A DNA stretch of 64,000 bases from Chrysemys picta bellii. Its lineage: Eukaryota. Numbering within the stretch: position 1 is the stretch's first letter; each line of letters opens with the position of its first letter. The DNA lies in assembly GCF_011386835.1 (NCBI RefSeq), contig NC_088812.1, positions 12,586,001 through 12,650,000 on the forward strand, given 5' to 3'. Under the pieces are notes generated by a model. It ran no database searches. It saw nothing but the letters and a program-made list of their open reading frames with translations, and was not told the DNA's origin. Below are positions 8,900 through 63,837 of this stretch, piece by piece. The position numbers and the translations under genes are program-made.

Positions 8900-9490
<591 letters not shown>

Positions 9491-13501: not shown

Positions 13502-13861
<360 letters not shown>

Positions 13862-14209
13862 TGACTTAGTTACTCCATCCTGCCTCTTGCACCCAGCCAC
13901 CACCAGGCGCAGCGGGTCTCGCTGCCTGGCCTGGTGCTCCACAGAGGAGTCTCCCTTGTTCGTTTTCCCCCAGGCGTGAGAGGCAGCGTTAAGCGTGTGA
14001 TGGGGCAGATCAAGGCCCCCCCCCCACCCCACACGCACTGCCAGAGCTGCTGATGGTGTCAGATGGGCAGCCTCAGCCTCGCTTCCTCTGCCCAGGGGCA
14101 GCTCCGGGATGCGCTTGGTGACGTCCCTGGAGAGGGGTGCTGACCCGCCGAGCAGGAACCGGGAAATAAAAGGGCTCTGTTGTGTTCTCGGGGGGGGGGG
14201 GGGGGGGGT

Positions 14210-14531
14210 GCCCTGCCTGGCATTTCCCCCGCCCCAGGGGAAGGGGTTGTGCTGGCAGCGGGGGGACGAAGAGGGGTGTCATGCAGAACACGTGGGCTGG
14301 TGTCTGCATCACTGGGTGGGCAAGAAGGGAGCAGACCACGGAGTGGGCTGTTTCCCCCAGGAGCCAGTTGGCCGTAACCCTTCGTTCCCAGGTCACCCCC
14401 ACCGCTGCCGGGTAGAGGCTTTGCTGCAGTGTGGGGGGGTCAGTCACAAGGCTGTCGAGTGAGGGGATGATTCGTAGGGTTTAAGGCCAGAGGGGATCAG
14501 GAAACGATCCTTCCCTCTGTGCTGAGCCGGT
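14210..14531 (+). repeat. 322-bp host intron segment, left copy of the duplication flanking the retrotransposon
   Basis: gccctgcctgg...tgctgagccggt appears identical to 20521-20842. Confidence 0.95.
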
Positions 14532-14941
14532 TGGGGGAGTTAGGGCCCTGCACCCCTCTTCCCGAGATTCACTGCGACTCTCAGCCAGCCAGTAAAGCAG
14601 AAGGTTTATTCAAGGACAGGAACACAGTCTCAAGCAGAGCGTGTAGGTACGACCAGACCCCCCTCAATTAGGTCCCTCTGGGAGGTTCAGGGAGCTTAGA
14701 CCCCAGCTTGGGGTTCCCTGCGTTGCACCACCCAGCCCCAACCGAAACTAAACTCCCAGCCCCTCCCGCTGCTCCTCTCCTTTGTTCAGTCTCCCGGGCA
14801 GAAGGTGTTAATTCTCCCCACCCCCGTTCCTGGCTCAGGTTACAGCTCAGGTAGCTCCCTTCAAGGGAAGTCCCACATCCCCACTGCAACCCCCCTGCAA
14901 CATTCCCAGGTCAAATCTGCCCTGCTCCCTGCTCCGTCACA
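14532..14941 (-). repeat. 3' LTR (410 bp; lacks the terminal 12 bp present in the 5' LTR)
   Basis: Matches 20111-20520 base for base by eye. Begins TGTGACGGA on the minus strand right after the PPT; AATAAA on minus at 14605-14610. Confidence 0.95.
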
Positions 14942-17900
14942 TCTCTCCCCCCTTCGAGACTGAACTGAGCGGGGTCACTCTGACCAGTGACCTGGGGAAG
15001 TTCAGGGCTCCCTCTCCGGGACAACGCGTCCGCTATCAGGTTGTCACGTCCCTTCACATGGACCACGTCCATGTCATAATCCTGCAGGAGCAGGCTCCAT
15101 CTCAGGAGCTTGGCGTTGGCTCCTTTCATCTGGTGCAGCCAGGTCAGGGGAGAGTGGTCGGTGTGCACGGTGAAGTGACGCCCAAAGAGATATGGCTCTA
15201 GTTTCTTGAGGGCCCACACCATGGCCAGGCATTCCTTCTCGATGGCCGCGTAGTTCTGCTCCCGGGGTAGTAACTTCTTGCTCAGGTACACGATGGGGTG
15301 TCTCTCCCCCTTTTCATCCTCCTGCATTAACACCGCCCCCAGTCCTGTGTCTGAGGCGTCGGTGAACACCATAAAGGGCTTGTCAAAGTCTGGGTTTGCC
15401 AGAACTGGGCCACTGACCAGAGCCTCCTTCAGCGCCCGGAGAGCCTCCTGGCACTCCTCGGTCCAGACCACTTTGTCTGGCTTCCCCTTCTTGCACAGCT
15501 CAGTGATGGGGGCGGCTATGGCGCTAAAGTGGGGCACGAACCTCCGATAGTACCCTGCCATCCCAATAAAGGCTTGGACCTGCTTTTTGGTTTGAGGAGC
15601 GGGCCAGTCTCTGATCACCTCCACTTTGGCTGGTTCCGGCTTTAGGCAGCCGCTTCCCACCCGGTGGCCTAGGTAGGATACCTCAGCCATCCCCACCTTG
15701 CACTTCTCCGGTTTTACGGTCAGCCCAGCCTTCTGGAGTCGGTCCAGCACTTGTCTAACCTGGGATATGTGGTCCTCCCAGGTCTGGCTAAAGACACAGA
15801 TGTCATCGATATACGCCACGGCAAAACTCTCCATCCCCCTCAGTAGCTGATCCACCAGGCGCTGGAAGGTGGCCGGCGCTCCCTTGAGGCCGAAGGGCAG
15901 GGTCAGGAACTCATAGAGCCCCAGAGGGGTGACAAAGGCCGATTTCAGCCTGGCATCTGCATCCAGCGGCACTTGCCAATAGCCCTTTGTAAGATCCATG
16001 GTGGTAAGGTACCGAGCACCTCCCAGCTTGTCTAGGAGCTCGTCCGGCCTGGGCATGGGGTAGGCATCGGCTACAGTGATGGCATTGAGCTTCCGATAGT
16101 CCACACAGAACCGGATCGACCCGTCCTTTTTGGGGACCAGCACCACCGGCGAGGCCCAAGGGCTGGAAGACGGCTGGATCACCCCCAAAGCCAGCATGTC
16201 ATTGACCTCTCTTTCCAGGTCCTGAGCAGTTTTCCCTGTGGCTCGGAAGGGGGAGCATTTTATAGGCGGGTGCGATCCTGTCTGCACCCGGTGGACAGTC
16301 AGATTAGTGCGTCCAGGCTGGTTGGAAAACAGCTGCTGGTACAGATGCAGCACCCCTCCGATCTCAGCTCGCTGGGCAGGGGTTAGCCGATCAGAGAGGG
16401 GAATTGCTTCCAGGGGGAAGCCAACTCTTGTCCCAGGGAATAGATCTACTAAAGGGTCATCCCCCTGCCCCTCCCACTGTCCACACACGGCCAACACCAT
16501 ATTCCCCCTGTCATAATATGGCTTCATCATATTCACATGGTACACCCGGTGGTGATGTGCCCGGTTCGACAGCTCCACCACATAGTTTACCTCGTTTAGT
16601 TGCTTGACAACCTTGAAGGGCCCTTCCCAGGCGGCCTGGAGTTTGTTTTTCCTCACGGGGATGAGGACCATCACCTGATCCCCAGTGGCGAAGGCGCGGG
16701 CCCGTGCTGTGCGGTCATACCAGACCTTCTGCTTCCTCTGGGCTCTGGCCAGATTCTCCCTGGCCAGGCCCATGAGCTCGGCAAGTCGTTCCCGGAAGGT
16801 CAGGACATACTCCACCACCGACTCTCCGTCAGGAGTGGCCTTCCCCTCCCATTCGTCTCTCATCAGGTCGAGGGGCCCCCTTACCCGCCTTCCATATAGC
16901 AGTTCGAAAGGCGAAAACCCGGTAGACTCCTGGGGTACCTCCCTGTACGCAAACAGCAGGTGAGGTAAGTACTTGTCCCAGTCCTGCGGGTGCTGATTCA
17001 TAAATGTTTTCAGCATCATTTTTAGCGTCCCATTGAACCTCTCCACCAGCCCGTTGGATTGGGGGTGATATGCTGAGGCCCAGTTGTGCCGGACCCCACA
17101 TCTCTCCCACAAGCACCGGAGTAGGGCCGACATGAAGTTGGACCCTTGGTCCGTCAAGACTTCCTTGGGGAACCCCACTCGGCTGAAAATGGTCAGCAGC
17201 GCATCCGCCACAGTGTCTGCTTCAATGGACGATAAGGGCACTGCCTCGGGGTAGCGGGTGGCGAAATCTACCACCACCAGGATGTATTTCTTCCCAGACC
17301 GGGTCGTCTTGCTGAGAGGTCCCACTATGTCCATGGCCACCTTCTGGAAAGGCTCCTCTATGATGGGCAAAGGTCTCAATGCTGCCTTCCCCTTGTCCCG
17401 GGCCTTCCCCACCCTCTGGCAGGGGTCACAGGATCGGCAGTACTGCCGGACGTTGGTGAAGACCCCGGGCCAGTAAAAGTTCTGTAGCAGCCTCTGCCTG
17501 GTGCGCCGGATCCCCTGGTGCCCTGCGAGAGGGATGTCATGGGCCAGGTACAGTAGCTTGTGGCGAAACTTCTGGGGAACCACCAGCTGCCTCCTGATCC
17601 CCCACGACTCCACTTCCCCCGGGGGAGCCCACTCTCGGTAGAGGAACCCCTTCTCCCACAGGAACCTCTCCTTGCATCCTCTCCTCATGGTCTGTCCCAC
17701 ACTGAGGTCAGCCAGGCCCCTTAGCTTCCGCAGGGAGGGGTCCTTCTGCAACTCGGCCTGGAACTCGGCGGCTGAGGAAGGGATGGGGACCTGCTCCCTC
17801 TCGTCGGCTGGGTCGGAAGCCCCAGCCACCCCGCGGCCTGTCCTTGGGTGTTCCCTCCCCACCCGGGAAGGGTTCGGTGCCTCCGGTGGGACATCCTTCC

Positions 17901-19758
17901 CAAGGTCAGGGCGTAGTGCCCCTCGCCGGCTCTGGCTACGGGTCACGACTAAGGCGGTCTGGGGGCTGCTTGGCCAGTCCTCTAGGTCCCCCCCCATCAA
18001 CACCTCAGTGGGCAAATGGTGGTGCACTCCCACGTCCTTGGGGCCCTCCTTGGCCCCCCATTTCAGGTGTACCCTCGCTACGGGAACCTTGAATGGGGTC
18101 CCGCCCACCCCGGTCAGGGTCAGGAAGGTGTTGGGCACCAGCCGATCTGGGGCCACCACCTCGGGCCGGGCCAGTGTCACCTCTGCGCCCGTGTCCCAGT
18201 ATCCATAAACTTTCTTCCCATCCACCTCCAGGGGAACAAGGCACTCGCTCCGCAGGGACAGCCCCGCGCCAACCCTGTAAACGGAGAACTTTGAATCCGG
18301 AGCATCTGGCCCCCCAGAGAAGCTGGCCGGGGGCCCTTCTCTCTCTTGAGCAGTTGATAAGCTGCCAGCCCCTCTTGCGTGGGAAGCCTGCCCCTCGTCC
18401 GTCTGGGCCTCTACCAAGTTAACCCGGTGCGGGTTCGGTCTGCTCAGTCTGTCCTTGAGCTTGGGGCACTGGGCCCGAACGTGGCCTCTTCGGCCGCAGT
18501 AATAGCAGCTCAGGTCCCGTGGGTCCCCTCGAGCCGGTCGGTTGTCCCTGATGCTGGGCCTTCCCCGTGGGAGGGGATTCCCCATATTCCCCCTTTGGGA
18601 GGTCCCAGGGTGACTCTCTCTCTGCATCGCGGCGGGCCTGTTCCTTTGGGGCTCCTCCCTGCCACCCCCTGACCGGCTCTTTACAAACTCATCAGCCAGC
18701 TGCCCGGCGTGTCGCGGGTTCTCTGGCTTTCTGTCCAGCAACCACAGCCTCAGGTCGGATGGGCACCGCTCATACAGTTGCTCCAGTACCAGCAGTTTAA
18801 TCAGGTCCTCCTTCGTCTGGGCCCCACCAGCCCACTTGCTGGCGTATCTTTCCATGCGGACGGCTAGTTGCAAATATGAGATCTCAGGGGTTTTATCTTG
18901 ACCCCGGAACCTTTCCCGGTACATCTCAGGAGTCAGCCCAAACTCTCGTAGCAGGGCCCTTTTGAATAGTTCGTAGTCCCCTTTCTCTGCCTCTCCCAGT
19001 TGGCGGTACAATGCCACGGATTTGGGGTCCAGTAAGGGGGTAAGGACCCGGAGTCTGTCCGCGGGATCCACCCGGTGCAGCTCGCAGGCCGTCTCAAAGG
19101 CCTCCAGGAAGTCATCCATGTCCTCCCCCTCCTTGTATGGGGCCATGATGCACTTATCAAAGCTCCGTGCAGTCCTGGGTCCCCCCTCACTCACCGCAGC
19201 CGGGGGTTCGCTGCCCCTCAGTCTCGCCAGTTCCAGTTCATGCTGTCTTTGTCTCTCATTCTCCTCCCGTTCATGCTGTCTCTGTCTCTCTTCACGCTGA
19301 TGCTGTCTCTCTTCATGCTGTCTCTGTTGTTCACGATCCTCCAGCTCCCTCAGTTTTAGCTCTTTCTCCCATTCCAGCCAATTCCGCTCCCCGGATGCCG
19401 AACGTCGCCGGGAGGCTCCTCTGCTGGCCGGCGGGCTTCGCCGGGGGGACCCCCTGCTGGCCGGGGGGGTCACGGCGCCCTCGGTATTTGCTGGGCTCCT
19501 CCCCACCCTTCCCCTAGGCATAGGAAGGAGGGGTCTCGGGAAGCCCTCAGCAGCCGGCTGACCACTCCCAGCTGGGACAGACACTGGTGCCTGCGCTGCA
19601 TTTGCCAGGCTGCTTCCCTGAGACACAGGGATCAGTTCATTCGCGCGATCTTCCGCCTCCAGCTGGGCAATGAGCTGTTCTTTGGTGAGCCTCCCAATGC
19701 GCAGCCGCCTCTGCTTGCACAGCTCCACCAGGTCGCTCTTAAGCCGCTTGGCATACAT
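14911..19758 (-). CDS. Gag-Pol polyprotein (1615 aa from first ATG): SCAN-like capsid, CCHC knuckle, protease, integrase, RT, RNase H
   Basis: ATG at 19758 (the ORF track starts at an upstream GTG, 19773). Motifs: LVLEQLY/LRLWLLDRKP (SCAN-like), CYYCGRRGHVRAQC, WDTGAEVT (DTG 18187-18195), HDIPLAGH..CRSCDPC, MDIVGP/LTDQGSNF/SNGLVERFN (D,D35E), EGPF, YIDD (15802-15813), FTDASD/EKECLA/TDH/ADALSR. Confidence 0.96.
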   Translation of the reverse strand: MYAKRLKSDLVELCKQRRLRIGRLTKEQLIAQLEAEDRANELIPVSQGSSLANAAQAPVSVPAGSGQPAAEGFPRPLLPMPRGRVGRSPANTEGAVTPPASRGSPRRSPPASRGASRRRSASGERNWLEWEKELKLRELEDREQQRQHEERQHQREERQRQHEREENERQRQHELELARLRGSEPPAAVSEGGPRTARSFDKCIMAPYKEGEDMDDFLEAFETACELHRVDPADRLRVLTPLLDPKSVALYRQLGEAEKGDYELFKRALLREFGLTPEMYRERFRGQDKTPEISYLQLAVRMERYASKWAGGAQTKEDLIKLLVLEQLYERCPSDLRLWLLDRKPENPRHAGQLADEFVKSRSGGGREEPQRNRPAAMQRESHPGTSQRGNMGNPLPRGRPSIRDNRPARGDPRDLSCYYCGRRGHVRAQCPKLKDRLSRPNPHRVNLVEAQTDEGQASHARGAGSLSTAQEREGPPASFSGGPDAPDSKFSVYRVGAGLSLRSECLVPLEVDGKKVYGYWDTGAEVTLARPEVVAPDRLVPNTFLTLTGVGGTPFKVPVARVHLKWGAKEGPKDVGVHHHLPTEVLMGGDLEDWPSSPQTALVVTRSQSRRGALRPDLGKDVPPEAPNPSRVGREHPRTGRGVAGASDPADEREQVPIPSSAAEFQAELQKDPSLRKLRGLADLSVGQTMRRGCKERFLWEKGFLYREWAPPGEVESWGIRRQLVVPQKFRHKLLYLAHDIPLAGHQGIRRTRQRLLQNFYWPGVFTNVRQYCRSCDPCQRVGKARDKGKAALRPLPIIEEPFQKVAMDIVGPLSKTTRSGKKYILVVVDFATRYPEAVPLSSIEADTVADALLTIFSRVGFPKEVLTDQGSNFMSALLRCLWERCGVRHNWASAYHPQSNGLVERFNGTLKMMLKTFMNQHPQDWDKYLPHLLFAYREVPQESTGFSPFELLYGRRVRGPLDLMRDEWEGKATPDGESVVEYVLTFRERLAELMGLARENLARAQRKQKVWYDRTARARAFATGDQVMVLIPVRKNKLQAAWEGPFKVVKQLNEVNYVVELSNRAHHHRVYHVNMMKPYYDRGNMVLAVCGQWEGQGDDPLVDLFPGTRVGFPLEAIPLSDRLTPAQRAEIGGVLHLYQQLFSNQPGRTNLTVHRVQTGSHPPIKCSPFRATGKTAQDLEREVNDMLALGVIQPSSSPWASPVVLVPKKDGSIRFCVDYRKLNAITVADAYPMPRPDELLDKLGGARYLTTMDLTKGYWQVPLDADARLKSAFVTPLGLYEFLTLPFGLKGAPATFQRLVDQLLRGMESFAVAYIDDICVFSQTWEDHISQVRQVLDRLQKAGLTVKPEKCKVGMAEVSYLGHRVGSGCLKPEPAKVEVIRDWPAPQTKKQVQAFIGMAGYYRRFVPHFSAIAAPITELCKKGKPDKVVWTEECQEALRALKEALVSGPVLANPDFDKPFMVFTDASDTGLGAVLMQEDEKGERHPIVYLSKKLLPREQNYAAIEKECLAMVWALKKLEPYLFGRHFTVHTDHSPLTWLHQMKGANAKLLRWSLLLQDYDMDVVHVKGRDNLIADALSRRGSPELPQVTGQSDPAQFSLEGGRDVTEQGAGQI
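14942..14955 (-). other. Polypurine tract (PPT)
   Basis: GAAGGGGGGAGAGA on the minus strand immediately 5' of the 3' LTR TG. Confidence 0.92.
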
Positions 19759-20078
19759 CTTCCTGCTGGCCACTCACCGGCCTGTGTGCTCACAGCTCCC
19801 CACAGTTCCCAGGGAGACCCCTAGTGTGCCAGCCCTTCTCGAGGTCACCACCTCTCTGCCAGGGTCGAGCTGCAGACTCCTCCGCCCCTGGGACCACTCG
19901 CTGCGATCCCCCCGGGGGACCCTGTTACTGCAAAAGTCCTTCTCGCTGGTCACACACTCCCAGGGGTAATAACCGTCTCTCTCCCACTCTTCAGCAGGCC
20001 TGGTCCCCGTCAATCCCCCTTCGTTTTACTGCTCCCCAGTCACTTACTGCAGGAAGCGCCGTCCACGGGGTGCAGTAG

Positions 20079-20096
20079 ATCCCGTCGCTGCCACCA
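20079..20096 (-). other. Primer binding site, tRNA-Leu(AAG/UAG)-like
   Basis: TGGTGGCAGCGACGGGAT, 2 nt after the 5' LTR end. 16/18 match to the complement of the recalled vertebrate tRNA-Leu 3' end (TGGTGGCAGCGGTGGGAT). Confidence 0.8.
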
Positions 20097-20098
20097 GT

Positions 20099-20520
20099 TG
20101 TTGCGGATTGTGGGGGAGTTAGGGCCCTGCACCCCTCTTCCCGAGATTCACTGCGACTCTCAGCCAGCCAGTAAAGCAGAAGGTTTATTCAAGGACAGGA
20201 ACACAGTCTCAAGCAGAGCGTGTAGGTACGACCAGACCCCCCTCAATTAGGTCCCTCTGGGAGGTTCAGGGAGCTTAGACCCCAGCTTGGGGTTCCCTGC
20301 GTTGCACCACCCAGCCCCAACCGAAACTAAACTCCCAGCCCCTCCCGCTGCTCCTCTCCTTTGTTCAGTCTCCCGGGCAGAAGGTGTTAATTCTCCCCAC
20401 CCCCGTTCCTGGCTCAGGTTACAGCTCAGGTAGCTCCCTTCAAGGGAAGTCCCACATCCCCACTGCAACCCCCCTGCAACATTCCCAGGTCAAATCTGCC
20501 CTGCTCCCTGCTCCGTCACA
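20099..20520 (-). repeat. 5' LTR (422 bp, complete)
   Basis: Minus strand TGTGACGGA...TCCGCAACA with imperfect terminal inverted repeat (7/9); AATAAA on minus at 20184-20189. Confidence 0.95.
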
Positions 20521-20842
20521 GCCCTGCCTGGCATTTCCCCCGCCCCAGGGGAAGGGGTTGTGCTGGCAGCGGGGGGACGAAGAGGGGTGTCATGCAGAAC
20601 ACGTGGGCTGGTGTCTGCATCACTGGGTGGGCAAGAAGGGAGCAGACCACGGAGTGGGCTGTTTCCCCCAGGAGCCAGTTGGCCGTAACCCTTCGTTCCC
20701 AGGTCACCCCCACCGCTGCCGGGTAGAGGCTTTGCTGCAGTGTGGGGGGGTCAGTCACAAGGCTGTCGAGTGAGGGGATGATTCGTAGGGTTTAAGGCCA
20801 GAGGGGATCAGGAAACGATCCTTCCCTCTGTGCTGAGCCGGT
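20521..20842 (+). repeat. 322-bp host intron segment, right copy
   Basis: Appears identical to 14210-14531 and starts exactly at the intact LTR terminus. Confidence 0.95.
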
Positions 20843-20935
20843 AACTGATGTGTGGCCAGAGCATCCCTGGCCCTCAGCTCCCTCCTTTGGGGAGAGAGGA
20901 GGGTGGGAAAGCCCCCCCTCCCCCCATTGCTTTGA

Positions 20936-21238
<303 letters not shown>

Positions 21239-47736: not shown

Positions 47737-47746
47737 NNNNNNNNNN
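47737..47746. other. Assembly gap (10 N)
   Basis: Run of n characters; true gap size unknown. Confidence 1.
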
Positions 47747-50075
47747 CCTGCTCCCCCAGCCCTGCGCTTCCCCCCCTACCCAGCTCTGCCGGTGCCCCTC
47801 ACTGCCCAGCCCCCTGCTCCCCCAGCCCTGCGCTTCCCCCCCCTTCCCAGCTCTGCCGGTGCCCCTCACTGCCCAGCCCCCTGCTCCCCCAGCCCTGCGC
47901 TTCCCCCCCCTACCCAGCTCTGCTGGTGCCCCTCACTGCCCAGCCCCCTGCTCCCCCAGCCCTGCGCTTCCCCCCCCTACCCAGCTCTGCCGGTGCCCCT
48001 CACTGCCCAGCCCCCTGCTCCCCCAGCCCTGTGCTTCCCCCCACCCCCAGCTCTGCCGGTGCCCCTCACTGCCCAGCCCCCTGCTCCCCCAGCCCTGCTC
48101 TTCCTGCCCTTCCCAGCTCTGCCGGTGCCCCTCACTGCCCAGCCCCCTGCTCCCCCAGCCCTGCTCTTCCCCCCCTTCCCAGCTCTGCCGGTGCCCCTCA
48201 CTGCCCAGCCCCCTGCTCCTCCAGCCCTGCTCTTCCCCCCCCTTCCCAGCTCTGCCGGTGCCCCTCACTGCCCAGCCCCCTGCTCCCCCAGCCCTGCGCT
48301 TCCCCCCCCCCCCCCCCAGCTCTGCCGGTGCCTCTCACTGCCCAGCCCCCTGCTCGCCCAGCCCTGCGCTTCCCCCCCTTCCCAGCTCTGCCGGTGCCCC
48401 TCACTGCCCAGCCCCCTGCTCCCCCAGCCCTGTGCTTCCCCCCCCTCCCCAGCTCTGCCGGTGCCCCTCACTGCCCAGCCCCCTGCTCCCCCAGCCCTGC
48501 GCTTCCCCCCCTACCCAGCTCTGCTGGTGCCCCTCACTGCCCAGCCCCCTGCTCCCCCAGCCCTGCGCTTTCCCCCCCCCTTCCCAGCTCTGCCGGTGCC
48601 CCTCACTGCCCAGCCCCCTGCTCCCCCAGCCCTGCGCTTCCCCCCCCCCCCCCAGCTCTGCCGGTGCCTCTCACTGCCCAGCCCCCTGCTCGCCCAGCCC
48701 TGCGCTTCCCCCCCCTTCCCAGCTCTGCCGGTGCCCCTCACTGCCCAGCCCCCTGCTCCCCCAGCCCTGTGCTTCCCCCCCTTCCCAGCTCTGCCGGTGC
48801 TTCTCACTGTCCAGCCCCCTGCTCCCCCAGCCCTGCGCTTCCCCCCCCTTCCCAGCTCTGCCGGTGCCCCTCACTGCCCAGCCCCCTGCTCCCCCAGCCC
48901 TGCTCTTCCCCCCCTTCCCAGCTCTGCCGGTGCCCCTCACTGCCCAGCCCCCTGCTCCCCCAGCCCTGCTCTTCCCCCCCTTCCCAGCTCTGCCGGTGCC
49001 CCTCACTGCCCAGCCCCCTGCTCCCCCAGCCCTGCGCTTCCCCCCCCCCCCCAGCTCTGCCGGTGCCTCTCACTGCCCAGCCCCCTGCTCCCCCAGCCCT
49101 GCTCTTCCCCCCCTTCCCAGCTCTGCCGGTGCCCCTCACTGCCCAGCCCCCTGCTCCCCCAGCCCTGCGCTTCCCCCCCCCCCCCAGCTCTGCCGGTGCC
49201 TCTCACTGCCCAGCCCCCTGCTCGCCCAGCCCTGCGCTTCCCCCCCTTCCCAGTTCTGCTGGTGCCCCTCACTGCCCAGCCCCCTGCTCCCCCAGCCCTG
49301 TGCTTCCCCCCCCTACCCAGCTCTGCCGGTGCCTCTCACTGCCCAGCCCCCTGCTCCCCCAGCCCTGCGCTTCCCCCCTTCCCAGCTCTGCCGGTGCCCC
49401 TCACTGCCCAGCCCCCTGCTCCCCCAGCCCTGTGCTTCCCCCCCCTACCCAGCTCTGCCGGTGCCTCTCACTGCCCAGCCCCCTGCTCCCCCAGCCCTGT
49501 GCTTCCCCCCCCTCCCCAGCTCTGCCGGTGCCACTCACTGCCCAGCCCCCTGCTAGCCCAGCCCTGCTCTTCCCCCCCCTACCCAGCTCTGCCGGTGCCC
49601 CTCACTGCCCAGCCCCCTGCTCCCCCAGCCCTCCGCTCCCCCCCCCCCAGCTCTGCCGGTGCCTCTCACTGCCCAGCCCCCTGCTCGCCCAGCCCTGCGC
49701 TTCCCCCCCCCAGCTCTGCCGGTGCCTCTCACTGCCCAGCCCCCTGCTCGCCCAGCCCTGCGCTTCCCCCCCTTCCCAGCTCTGCCGGTGCCCCTCACTG
49801 CCCAGCCCCCTGCTCCCCCAGCCCTGCGCTTCCCCCCCCTTCCCAGCTCTGCCGGTGCCCCTCACTGCCCAGCCCCCTGCTCCCCCAGCCCTGCGCTTCC
49901 CCCCCTTCCCAGCTCTGCCGGTGCCCCTCACTGCCCAGCCCCCTGCTCCCCCAGCCCTGCGCTTCCCCCCCTTCCCAGCTCTGCCGGCACCTCTCACTGC
50001 CCAGCCCCCTGCTCCCCCAGCCCCGGGCTCCCCCCCAGCTCTGCCGGTGCCCCTCACTCCCACCCGCAGCCCCTG
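47747..50075. repeat. C-rich minisatellite, ~35 copies of a 66-67 bp unit, SUOX intron 1
   Basis: Unit cctgctcccccagccctgcgcttC(n)tWcccagctctgccggtgcccctcactgcccagccc; starts at 47747, 47813, 47880, 47947 and onward. Confidence 0.97.
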
Positions 50076-50957: not shown

Positions 50958-51417
50958 GTGAGGGAGCTGGGACCAGCGTCATGGGATCGGCGGCTCCCCA
51001 GAGCCTCCCTGGAGTGCTCAGCTCTCTGCCTCAGGGCACAAAGGTGGCATGAGAGCTGGATGGGCATCTTGGGGAAGGAGGCATGGTCTAGTGGTTAGAG
51101 CATGGGGGGGCTGGGAATCAGGACTCCTGGGTTCTCTCCCAGCTCCGGGAGGGGAGTGGGATCTAGTGGTTAGAGCAGGGGGGGCTGGGAACCAGGACTC
51201 CTGGGTTCTCTCCCAGCTCTGGGAGGGGAATGGGGTCTAGTGGTTAGAGCAGAGAGGGGTCTGGGAGCCAGGATCCCTGGTTCCGCTCCCAGTTCTGCCC
51301 CTGAGGTGCTGCGTAGCCTGGGGTGCATCCCTTCCCCCCCCGAGGCGGGTGAGGCTCTCGGAGGCCTGCGGTGGATGTTGGCGGATGCACCTCGAGCCCC
51401 TCTCCTTGTCCCTGCAG

Positions 51418-52863
51418 GCGGCGGAGGCCGAGCCGAACGCTGAGGCCGCGCCCGGGGCGCCGTACCCCGTGTTCACCCGCCAGGAGGTGGGGCGGCACCG
51501 CAGCCTGGCCGAGCGGGTCTGGGTGACCTACGGCCGCGAGGTCTTCGACATCACCGACTTCGTGGAGCTGCACCCGGGGGGCAAGAGCAAGGTCCTGCTG
51601 GCAGCGGGGGGCGCCCTGGAGCCCTTCTGGGCCATGTACGCCGTGCACAGCCAGGCGCACGTGCTGGAGATCCTGCAGGCCTACAAGGTGGGGGAGCTGA
51701 GCCCCGAGGAGCAGAGCCAGGCCACCCAGGGGGACCCCTACTCCGGGGACCCCCCTCGGCACCCCGCCCTCCAAGTCAACAGCCTCAAGCCCTTCAACGC
51801 GGAGCCGCCAGCTGAGCTGCTGACCGAGAACTACCTGACGCCCAACCAGCTCTTCTTCAAACGCAACCACCTCCCGGTGCCGGCCGTGGACGCCGCCAGC
51901 TACCGGCTGCAGGTGGAGGGGCCGGGGGGCCGCGTGCTGGCGCTCTCGCTGTCCGAGCTCAAGCGCCGCTTCCCCAAGCACGAGGTGACGGTCACCCTGC
52001 AGTGCGCCGGGAACCGCCGCTCGGAGATGAGCCGCGTCCGGCAGGTGAAGGGGCTGGAGTGGGGGGTGGCGGCCATCAGCACGGCCCGCTGGGGCGGCGT
52101 CCGGCTCCGGGATGTCCTGGTGCACGCCGGCTACAGGGAGGAGGAGGGGGAGGCCGGGGAGCACCACGTCTGCTTCGAGGGCCTGGATAAGGACCTGAGC
52201 GGGGTGGCCTACGGAGCCTCCATCCCTTACCGCACGGCCATGGGCCGCGGGGCCGACGTGCTGCTGGCCTACGAGATGAACGGCGAGGAGCTGCCACGGG
52301 ACCACGGCTACCCGCTGCGGGTGGTGGTGCCGGGCGTGGTGGGCGCCCGCAACGTCAAGTGGCTGGGCCGGGTCTCCGTGAGCCCGGAGGAGAGCCCAAG
52401 CCACTGGCAGCAGAACGACTACAAGGGCTTCTCGCCCGCCGTGGACTGGGACACGGTGGATTTCACAACGGCTCCCGCCATCCAGGAGCTGCCCGTCCAG
52501 TCGGCCATCACCGACCCCGCGCCTGGGGCCACCGTCCCGCCCGGGGAGCTGACGGTCAAGGGCTACGCCTGGAGCGGGGGCGGGCGCGGCGTGGTGCGCG
52601 TGGACGTCTCGCTGGACGGCGGCCGGACGTGGCGCGTGGCCGAGCTGACGGGCGAGGAGCAGCAGCCGGGCCGGGCCTGGGCCTGGCGCCTGTGGCAGCT
52701 CACGGCCCCCGTTCCCCCCGGCGCCACGGAGCTGGACATTGTCTGCAAGGCCGTGGACGCCAGCTACAACGTGCAGCCCGACACGGTGGAGCCCATCTGG
52801 AACCTGCGGGGGGTGCTGAGCAACGCCTGGCACCGCGTCACCGTCACCGTGGCCGAGGATTAA
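51418..52863 (+). CDS. SUOX: Sulfite oxidase, large terminal exon (cytochrome b5, Moco and dimerisation domains)
   Basis: cctgcag| then 481 codons plus TAA. Motifs: HPGG heme loop, [17 protein letters not shown] (Mo-ligating Cys), [39 protein letters not shown]. Confidence 0.98.
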
Positions 52864-61673: not shown

Positions 61674-62678
61674 CATAGACTCATAGACTAGCAGGGTGGG
61701 AAGGGACCTTAGGAGGTATCTAGTCCAACCCCCTGCTCAGAACAGGACCAATCCCCAACTAAATCATCCCAGCCAGGGCTTTGTCAAACCGGGCCTTAAA
61801 AACCTCTTAGGATGGAGATTCCACCACCTCCCTAGGGAACCCATTCCAGTGCTTCTCCACCTTCCTAATATCCAACCTAGACCTCCCCCACTGTAACTCG
61901 AGACCATTGCTCCTTGTTCTGTCATCTGCCACCACTGAGAACAGCCGAGCTCCATCCTCTTTGGAACCCCCCTTCAGGTAGTTGAAGGCAGCTATCAAAT
62001 CCCCCCTCACTCTTCTCTTCTGCAAACTAAATAACCCCAGTTCCCTCAGCCTCTCCTCATAAGTCATGTGCTCCAGCCCCTGATCATTTTTGTTGCCCTC
62101 CGCTGGACTCTTTCCAATATTTCCACATCGTTCTTGTAGTGTGGGGCCCAAAACTGGACACAGTATTCCAGATGAGGCTTAACCAATGCCGAATAGAGGG
62201 GAACTATCACGTCCCTCGATCTGCTGGCAATGCCCCTACTTATACAGCCCAAAATGCTGTTAGCCTTCTTGGCAACAAGGGCACACTGTTGACTCATATC
62301 CAGCTTCTCGTCCACTGTAACCCCTAGGTCCTTTTCTGCAGAACTGCTGCCTAGCCAGTCGGTCCCCAGCCTGTAGCAGTGCATGGGATTCTTCCATCCT
62401 AAGTGCAGGACTCTGCACTTGTCCTTGTTGAACTTCATCAGGTTTCTTTTGGCCCAATCCTCTAATTTGTCTAGGTCCCTCTGTATCCTGCCCCTACCCT
62501 CCAGCATATCTACCACACCTCCCAGTTTAGTGTCATCTGCAAACTTGCTGAGGGTGCAATCCATGCCATCCTCCAGATCATTAATGAAGATATTGAACAA
62601 AACCGGCCCCAGGACCAACCCTTGGGGCACTCCACTTGATACCAGCTGCCAACTAGACATAGAGCCATTGATCACTAT
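61674..62678 (-). mobile_element. 5'-truncated CR1 LINE (RT C-terminal part plus 3' end)
   Basis: ORF 62064-62759: [22 protein letters not shown]...[10 protein letters not shown]...HLEYCVQFW. The tail catagactcatagact matches the 5335 fragment. Confidence 0.95.
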
Positions 62679-63837
62679 GACTATGGTTGGGGGCAGGGGC
62701 AGCTGTCCAGGAGTGGCGAGGGGGCTAAGGGAGGCGTCTGGGGTGGGTGGGGGAGGCAAGGTGGGTACAGAGGCATCTCTCTGGGAGGGAGGGGATGGCT
62801 GAGAGGAGAAGGCCGGGGTAATGGGGTGCGGCTGGCTGAGGTTGGAGGGCTGATAGGGGAACTATTGGGAATGGGGGGAGCATTGGGGAGTGTTTCCCTG
62901 CTGCTCAGGTGTCCCAGACTTCCTTTTTGAAGCCCCTTTTCTTCATGCTTGGGGGGGGCACTGGCGTGAGAGGGGATAGACTGGGGACATACCTGCGTCC
63001 TTCTATTTTCCCTTCTCGGTTCCTTTCCATACACTGCCCTGCAAGGTTGGTAGCTTTAGGGAACTGGGGTGGGGGGAGGTACACCCTTCCCTCCACAGGG
63101 ATCAGACTAAAGAATCCACAATAAATTGTCGCCTCCTAGGGTTTTACTTGTAGTTACTTTTGGAAGAGAGGAAAGAAACACTCTCTGATTCCCCCCACCA
63201 TCACTTCCAGCCTGTTACCCTTCTCCCTTTACTTTGGCCACTCCCCGCTCTCGAATGGTCCTGTAGTTTGACATGATATTCCTCTATAAGAAAAAAGAAA
63301 CGTAACCTGACTGTTTTGGTGGCACTTGGTGGTACCAGGCACCCTGTGGGGGTGTGGGAAGAATGAAGGGTTTCACATTTTTAGAAATGCAACGATAGTT
63401 TCTTATTTCTAGTCCTTCAGGGACAGTGAATCTTGTTGGATTTCCATAAAATTGCTTTGCCTCCCTGCTTCAGTCCAGTGTCTTGTAGGTTGATTTGTCT
63501 GATCATCTTACATTCTTGGAGGTATTTCTTTTCCGTTGCTTAAAGTAACTTACCCTTTTCCTAGCCCGGCCGATGCAGCTGTGTGCACATTGTATTACTT
63601 ACAGCTGGCGTGATGGTGCACGTGCACAAGGTGGCGGAGTTAAGGTTAAGGCTGCTGTTGGATAATACTTAGCACTTTTCATCTGAGAAGCGTGAAACTG
63701 TCAGGTTGGTGTCTGGCTTAGATGATGATTTCCTTGCTCAGCTTTATCTCTGCACTAACAGTTCCATTTGTTGGGGTATTTGGAAGATTTACTCATAATC
63801 TTGAATGTCTTTACCCGCGTCAGACCCCTCTGAAGGC

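Follow-up and report, generated by a model that had tools for sequence, protein, structure and literature searches.

A young Ty3/Gypsy element in intron 5 of the painted-turtle CDK2 gene, flanked by a 322-bp host duplication suggestive of aberrant integration

The stretch of DNA analysed here (64,000 nt from Chrysemys picta bellii, contig NC_088812.1; hereafter the window) carries the CDK2 gene on the plus strand and, in intron 5 of this gene, an LTR retrotransposon on the minus strand. Exon 1 of CDK2 begins at 9374, the borders of exons 2 to 6 are canonical and their reading frame is kept, and exon 6 was 100% identical to turtle CDK2 entries among the top protein matches. Intron 5 extends from 13628 to 20992 (7365 nt); without the element and one copy of a flanking duplication the presumed empty site would have an intron of ~1054 nt. 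An initial annotation of this DNA had described an antisense element that enlarged intron 5 from about 1 kb to 7.4 kb, and both the orientation and the size change were borne out. The features of the locus are as follows (window coordinates, strand in parentheses).

13526..13627 (+): CDK2 exon 5, followed by an intact GT donor
14190..14208 (+): run of 19 G (G4-type motif), separated by 1 nt from host copy 1
14210..14531 (+): host intron segment, copy 1, 322 bp, identical to copy 2
14532..14941 (-): 3′ LTR (left), outer (U5) end clipped by 2 or 12 nt, terminal CA retained
14911..19758 (-): single gag-pol ORF, 1615 aa, no internal stop or frameshift over 4.8 kb; no env
~14942..14955 (-): polypurine tract (PPT), adjoining the 3′ LTR
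15565..15570 (+): AATAAA in CDK2 sense with a U-rich stretch downstream, candidate polyadenylation signal
20079..20096 (-): primer-binding site (PBS-like 18-mer), beginning with TGG
20099..20520 (-): 5′ LTR, 422 bp, or 412 bp if starting at 20109; precise TG...CA U3 end
20521..20842 (+): host intron segment, copy 2, 322 bp, identical to copy 1
20993..21196 (+): CDK2 exon 6, with acceptor and pyrimidine tract in single-copy DNA, 150 nt beyond the duplication

Elsewhere in the window a 67-bp satellite of ~35 copies (47737-50062) lies beside a gap of 10 Ns, and a related 63-bp array occupies 248-733. An open frame at 51241-52863 (+) presumably encodes a sulfite oxidase-like protein, and a non-LTR reverse transcriptase fragment at 62064-62861 (-) is, we assume, CR1-like.

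Computed alignment of the LTR copies 14532-14941 and 20111-20520 showed 410 identical bases out of 410. The identity that had been noted by eye was thus exact, and a divergence of several percent was not seen. The internal region is filled by the gag-pol ORF, and env is absent. The uninterrupted frame, the PBS and the PPT of the initial annotation were all recovered at the positions listed above. We take the PBS to resemble the 3′ end of tRNA-Leu; the 64-kb window contains no tRNA gene with which it could be compared. The stop codon and the final residues of the ORF (14911-14941) are located inside the 3′ LTR, and the same terminal residues occur in six painted-turtle copies. The 3′ LTR contains an AATAAA in the sense of the element (14605-14610), and gag carries a variable glutamine/arginine/glutamate repeat (window 19237-19347).

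The domains of the ORF were located by Pfam search and by their catalytic motifs (residue numbers of the 1615-aa ORF).

277-362: SCAN
418-433: CCHC knuckle
522: protease DTG
727-1081: integrase
1208-1367: reverse transcriptase (RT)
1432-1561: RNase H

Every catalytic motif claimed previously could be assigned to residues: DTG at 522, the integrase triad D810-D870-E906, YIDD at 1316 and the RNase H residues D1467, E1509, D1534 and D1577. The SCAN domain in gag matched PF02023 with E 8.8e-11, and RVT_1, RT_RNaseH, Integrase_H2C2 and SH3_Tf2-1 were matched as well. The integrase precedes RT, giving the overall order SCAN-PR-INT-RT-RH. Among solved structures the top matches were the Ty3 polyprotein entries 7q5b and 4ol8 (~1e-95), with retroviral RTs at 1e-40 or weaker. 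The Ty3-type RT/RNase H, the two LTRs, the PBS, the PPT and the lack of env identify the element as Ty3/Gypsy. Because its Ty3-type RT is combined with an upstream integrase and a SCAN domain in gag, all in a single fused gag-pol ORF, its domain arrangement places it with the Gmr1-like elements. This domain order with SCAN in gag is reported for Gmr1-like elements in the parts of 10.1101/2025.03.03.638093 and PMC2774666 that we consulted; the former, a preprint, describes them as especially abundant in fish and turtles, and the fish Gmr elements in the consulted part of PMC11117352 have a single fused ORF of 1506-1634 aa and LTRs of 337-518 bp. A Ty1/Copia identity was ruled out, as the ORF had no Pfam match to the Copia-type RT (RVT_2) and shares with that group the domain order alone. 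An endogenous retrovirus was likewise ruled out by the domain matches and by Ty3-type RT being closest among solved structures.

The best database match was a painted-turtle protein (1589 of 1612 residues identical) in a cluster of 29 members, and the 15 of these members that were listed include at least eight near-full-length Chrysemys proteins at 95.4-98.6% identity. The exact 1615-aa protein had no identical entry in the protein collection searched. In all seven painted-turtle copies compared pol was open and showed 1-7 differences per 1100 residues; gag residues 1-500 varied more (6-20 differences among painted-turtle copies). Sea-turtle copies, found in two clusters of 577 and 509 members, were 81-84% identical across the full length. 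The gag half of the family (92% over 695 aa) also makes up painted-turtle entry P0133, which bears the name "dystrobrevin beta isoform X1"; here a gene model at another gene appears to have absorbed a family copy. A scan of viral contigs found no relative of the element. A scan of metagenomes yielded three distant loci (36-46% identity), none of which had an LTR pair with host flanks. One of them (L003:1011-1461, 46% identity), from a distant relative, lies on a circular contig; its integrase precedes RT, and its PPT is similar. Its LTR ends in a 6-bp terminal inverted repeat that is followed by one base and then TGG, giving an LTR-PBS spacer of 1 nt.

The words of the region were also looked for in sequencing runs, where host sequence alone can supply a maximum share of 0.40 and the element alone 0.60. 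Among the 24 runs listed, 13 DNA or unlabelled runs with three organism labels from four studies contained 0.67-0.80 of the words, shares that are not specific to the CDK2 locus and for which one sample may be the source. These values exceed what host or element can give alone, therefore near-identical element DNA is common to those runs. One labelled RNA run reached 0.49, more than host sequence can supply; transcripts of the element are hinted at by this value, but DNA carry-over is possible. Five RNA runs had 0.06-0.07 of the words, equal to the expectation for exons only (0.067), small shares that carry no evidential weight, and four further runs had almost none.

Zero differences in 410 + 322 = 732 duplicated bases limit the divergence to <0.41% (95% bound), which corresponds to an age under about 1-4 Myr if rates of 2 to 0.5e-9 per site and year are assumed. 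Of the "very recent intact insertion" of the initial annotation, intactness stood and youth was confirmed only within this loose bound. The bound is compatible with a polymorphic insertion and no demonstration of one. The near-identical open copies in the painted turtle support recent activity of the family.

Whether the insertion measurably changes CDK2 mRNA, as the first reading had suggested, is a separate question. A cryptic exon might be recruited from the antisense LTR or from the internal region, polyadenylation might occur prematurely at 15565, or the 3′ LTR might drive antisense transcription. Both LTRs contain an acceptor-like site (14790 and 20369) whose pyrimidine content equals that of the genuine exon-6 acceptor (0.85), but the donors that follow are weak (6-7 of 9 consensus bases). 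Another acceptor-like site, at 16867, lies close to strong donors and has an in-frame stop. Such sites are no denser in the element (10 in 5989 nt, ~1.7/kb) than in the host intron (2 in ~1340 nt, ~1.5/kb). The sense-strand AATAAA pointed out earlier at 15565-15570 is present (0.13 expected, 1 seen), but the host intron carries one of its own at 14165, and the 64-kb window has 36 against 7 expected. The native exon 5 donor and exon 6 acceptor are both intact and lie outside the 322-bp duplication. In mammals, most of which have an extra CDK2 exon according to 10.1101/2024.09.03.610967, mice lacking this exon (and thus the long isoform) are fertile, as are Cdk2 heterozygotes. The proposed alteration of splicing found no support in the sequence, an effect of the insertion on CDK2 is unsupported, and we consider a measurable one improbable. 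Most likely CDK2 still splices exon 5 to exon 6 across the longer intron.

A CDK2L-like exon inside the duplicated DNA was ruled out: all six mammalian CDK2L inserts matched the duplicated 322 bp at shuffle level (159-473 of 500 shuffles scored as high). The mammalian insert is an in-frame cassette of 48 aa, and its C-terminal half has a weak ungapped match (8 of 17 aa), followed by a stop, at ~13817-13867 in single-copy intron 5. With three regions tried, 4-12 of 500 shuffles scored as high for four of the six inserts, and 42 and 184 for the other two; the match may be a vestige or chance. Among the 120 CDK2-like proteins listed, both flanking motifs were present in 55 and an insert in 13. 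A single insert among these matches came from a reptile, a tortoise (P0169); it corresponds to the beginning of the intron and falls outside the duplication.

The most unusual feature of the site, absent from the initial annotation, is a long duplication of host DNA together with a clipped LTR end. Host intron sequence 14210-14531 is repeated exactly at 20521-20842, and the two 322-bp copies directly abut the element on its two sides. No short target-site duplication (4-6 bp) is present at the flanks. The LTR pair and the 322-bp pair are the only exact repeats longer than 40 nt outside tandem arrays in the 64 kb. At the right junction the precise LTR end is joined straight to host copy 2. The two LTRs differ in extent, the left one being short by 2 nt if the 5′ LTR is 20109-20520, or by 12 nt if it is 20099-20520. 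The candidate U5 end at 20109 has an inverted-repeat match of 8/10 and lies 12 nt from the PBS, whereas that at 20099 has 7/10 and lies 2 nt from the PBS. The 1-nt spacer of L003, one distant example, favours the 20099 end, and with it a loss of 12 nt. At the clipped end no exact microhomology was found, and the best imperfect match was at chance level (712 of 1030 windows scored as high). A patchy likeness to the PBS/LTR tip was seen at 20709-20754 and its twin in copy 1, away from the junctions; it is borderline (49 of 1000 shuffles). Neither junction contains an N. The site thus lacks the 4-6 bp duplication and the two complete TG...CA ends of normal concerted LTR integration, and it has one precise end, with a long host duplication where the other end is truncated, as in aberrant one-ended integration.

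With confidence slightly above even, we explain the locus by a real aberrant (one-ended or uncoupled) germ-line integration of a young full-length Gmr1-like element. Integrase would have joined the U3 end precisely, just past the G-run. The U5 end, having lost 2-12 terminal bases, would have been attached on the opposite strand 322 bp away rather than 4-6 bp. Integrase could have made this second transfer, uncoupled from the first, at an internal CA; alternatively, a host polymerase could have extended the free 3′ end on nearby DNA, with recombination as the next step. Repair would then leave 322 bp on each side of the element, and recombination between these flanking repeats should permit occasional clean loss of the element.

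This explanation is favoured by the exact 322-bp repeat, by the combination of one precise and one clipped end, and by a stagger of the duplication-type polarity. It is also favoured by precedents. The same anatomy was seen in a cloned XMRV provirus, 1 of 15 sites, which had a 273-bp duplication and a 5-bp deletion of the LTR end (PMC2857682, in the part consulted). Aberrant HIV and ASLV proviruses, as described in the consulted sections of PMC5041404, have one normal end, a second end that is often truncated and duplications of hundreds of bp; in the model given there the free 3′ end primes on nearby DNA and then recombines, usually but not always at short homology. For HERV-K, the consulted part of PMC5488345 gives flanking repeats of 61-450 bp at 6 of 451 sites (estimated), two of them validated by empty alleles; the long duplications of HERV-K(HML-2) at 7p21.2, 6p25.2 and 21q21.1 measure 250, 111 and 450 bp, and the authors discuss pseudo-TSD origins and clean loss through recombination.

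Several observations weigh against aberrant integration: the clipped end has no microhomology, whereas the host-priming model usually involves homology; the repeat begins beside a G-run that is hard to sequence, and the junctions are known from the assembly alone; the U5 end is ambiguous between 20109 and 20099; and in none of the 24 runs listed did the share of the region's words exceed 0.80. The first two also speak for a misassembly at a heterozygous site. The assembler would have stayed on the empty haplotype for 322 bp beyond the place of insertion before switching, near the tip of the LTR, to the haplotype with the element, and the true allele would be an ordinary insertion with a short target-site duplication beside the G-run. 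The complete identity of the 322-bp copies, their start 1 nt past the 19 G and the dependence of both junctions on the assembly would suit such an error. However, the join was made without a gap where Ns were kept elsewhere in the window, the sequence seems accurate (the 4.8-kb ORF is unbroken), the 64 kb contain no further exact repeat of host DNA above 40 nt outside tandem arrays, and the cloned precedents with the same anatomy are real. N-free junctions and the unbroken ORF favour aberrant integration, and we regard misassembly as unlikely, if a serious contender.

Identical final sequence would also result if a normal insertion had later broken beside the G-run at its left junction, with the empty homologue serving as template for 322 bp of repair synthesis and the trimmed LTR then being rejoined. 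The G4-type motif at the boundary agrees with this course of events, but a second rare event would be needed soon after the first, as both repeat pairs show zero differences, and we hold it to be distinctly improbable. Two further models, discussed for HERV-K in the consulted part of PMC5488345, are an unequal crossover between independent insertions that share their orientation and lie 322 bp apart on different haplotypes, and an insertion into the seam of an existing tandem duplication. They are helped here by the many near-identical family copies and the CA at the clipped end, but we hold an origin of this kind to be very improbable: it needs two hits within 322 bp, and it predicts two complete LTR ends or a short seam duplication, neither of which is present.

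For a turtle, neither the element nor its place in an intron is out of the ordinary: the element is a young member of a known, abundant clade. Its insertion-site anatomy appears to be of a type known from retroviruses. A mouse IAP case with a long duplication has reportedly been seen. No Ty3/Gypsy case of long-duplication aberrant integration surfaced among the listings searched in a partial, open-access library, which is weak evidence of absence. If real, the aberrant integration favoured here would extend such events from retroviruses to an inherited Ty3/Gypsy insertion, with the structure before and after the event readable. An empty allele at the locus could then be a clean excision and not the ancestral state, and annotation tools that require a 4-6 bp target-site duplication would skip such copies. 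There is a small chance that the structure is both real and typical of the family, an active turtle Gmr1 family whose two competing CA ends at U5 would lead to frequent one-ended integration with hundreds of bases duplicated. Insertions of this kind would be missed by LTR finders that rely on target-site duplications, their clean excision would be possible, and a Ty3/Gypsy element would then be generating local duplications naturally in the germ line of a vertebrate that evolves slowly.

Compared with Gmr1-like Ty3/Gypsy elements, the element itself shows no difference, and the abnormality is confined to the insertion site. There it resembles the aberrant proviruses of XMRV, HIV-1 and ASLV in that one end is precise, the other is clipped, and hundreds of bp of host DNA are duplicated. 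Those proviruses came from cultured cells (under drugs or mutations for HIV and ASLV), whereas the present case concerns an element of the Metaviridae type in the genome assembly of a vertebrate, and unlike the usual HIV/ASLV case it has no exact microhomology at its clipped end. HERV-K is a betaretrovirus for which some empty alleles have been validated, whereas the turtle element is Gypsy-type, fully intact and read from an assembly. Like HERV-K(HML-2), it is an inherited LTR element with long flanking repeats, between which recombination may recreate the empty site.
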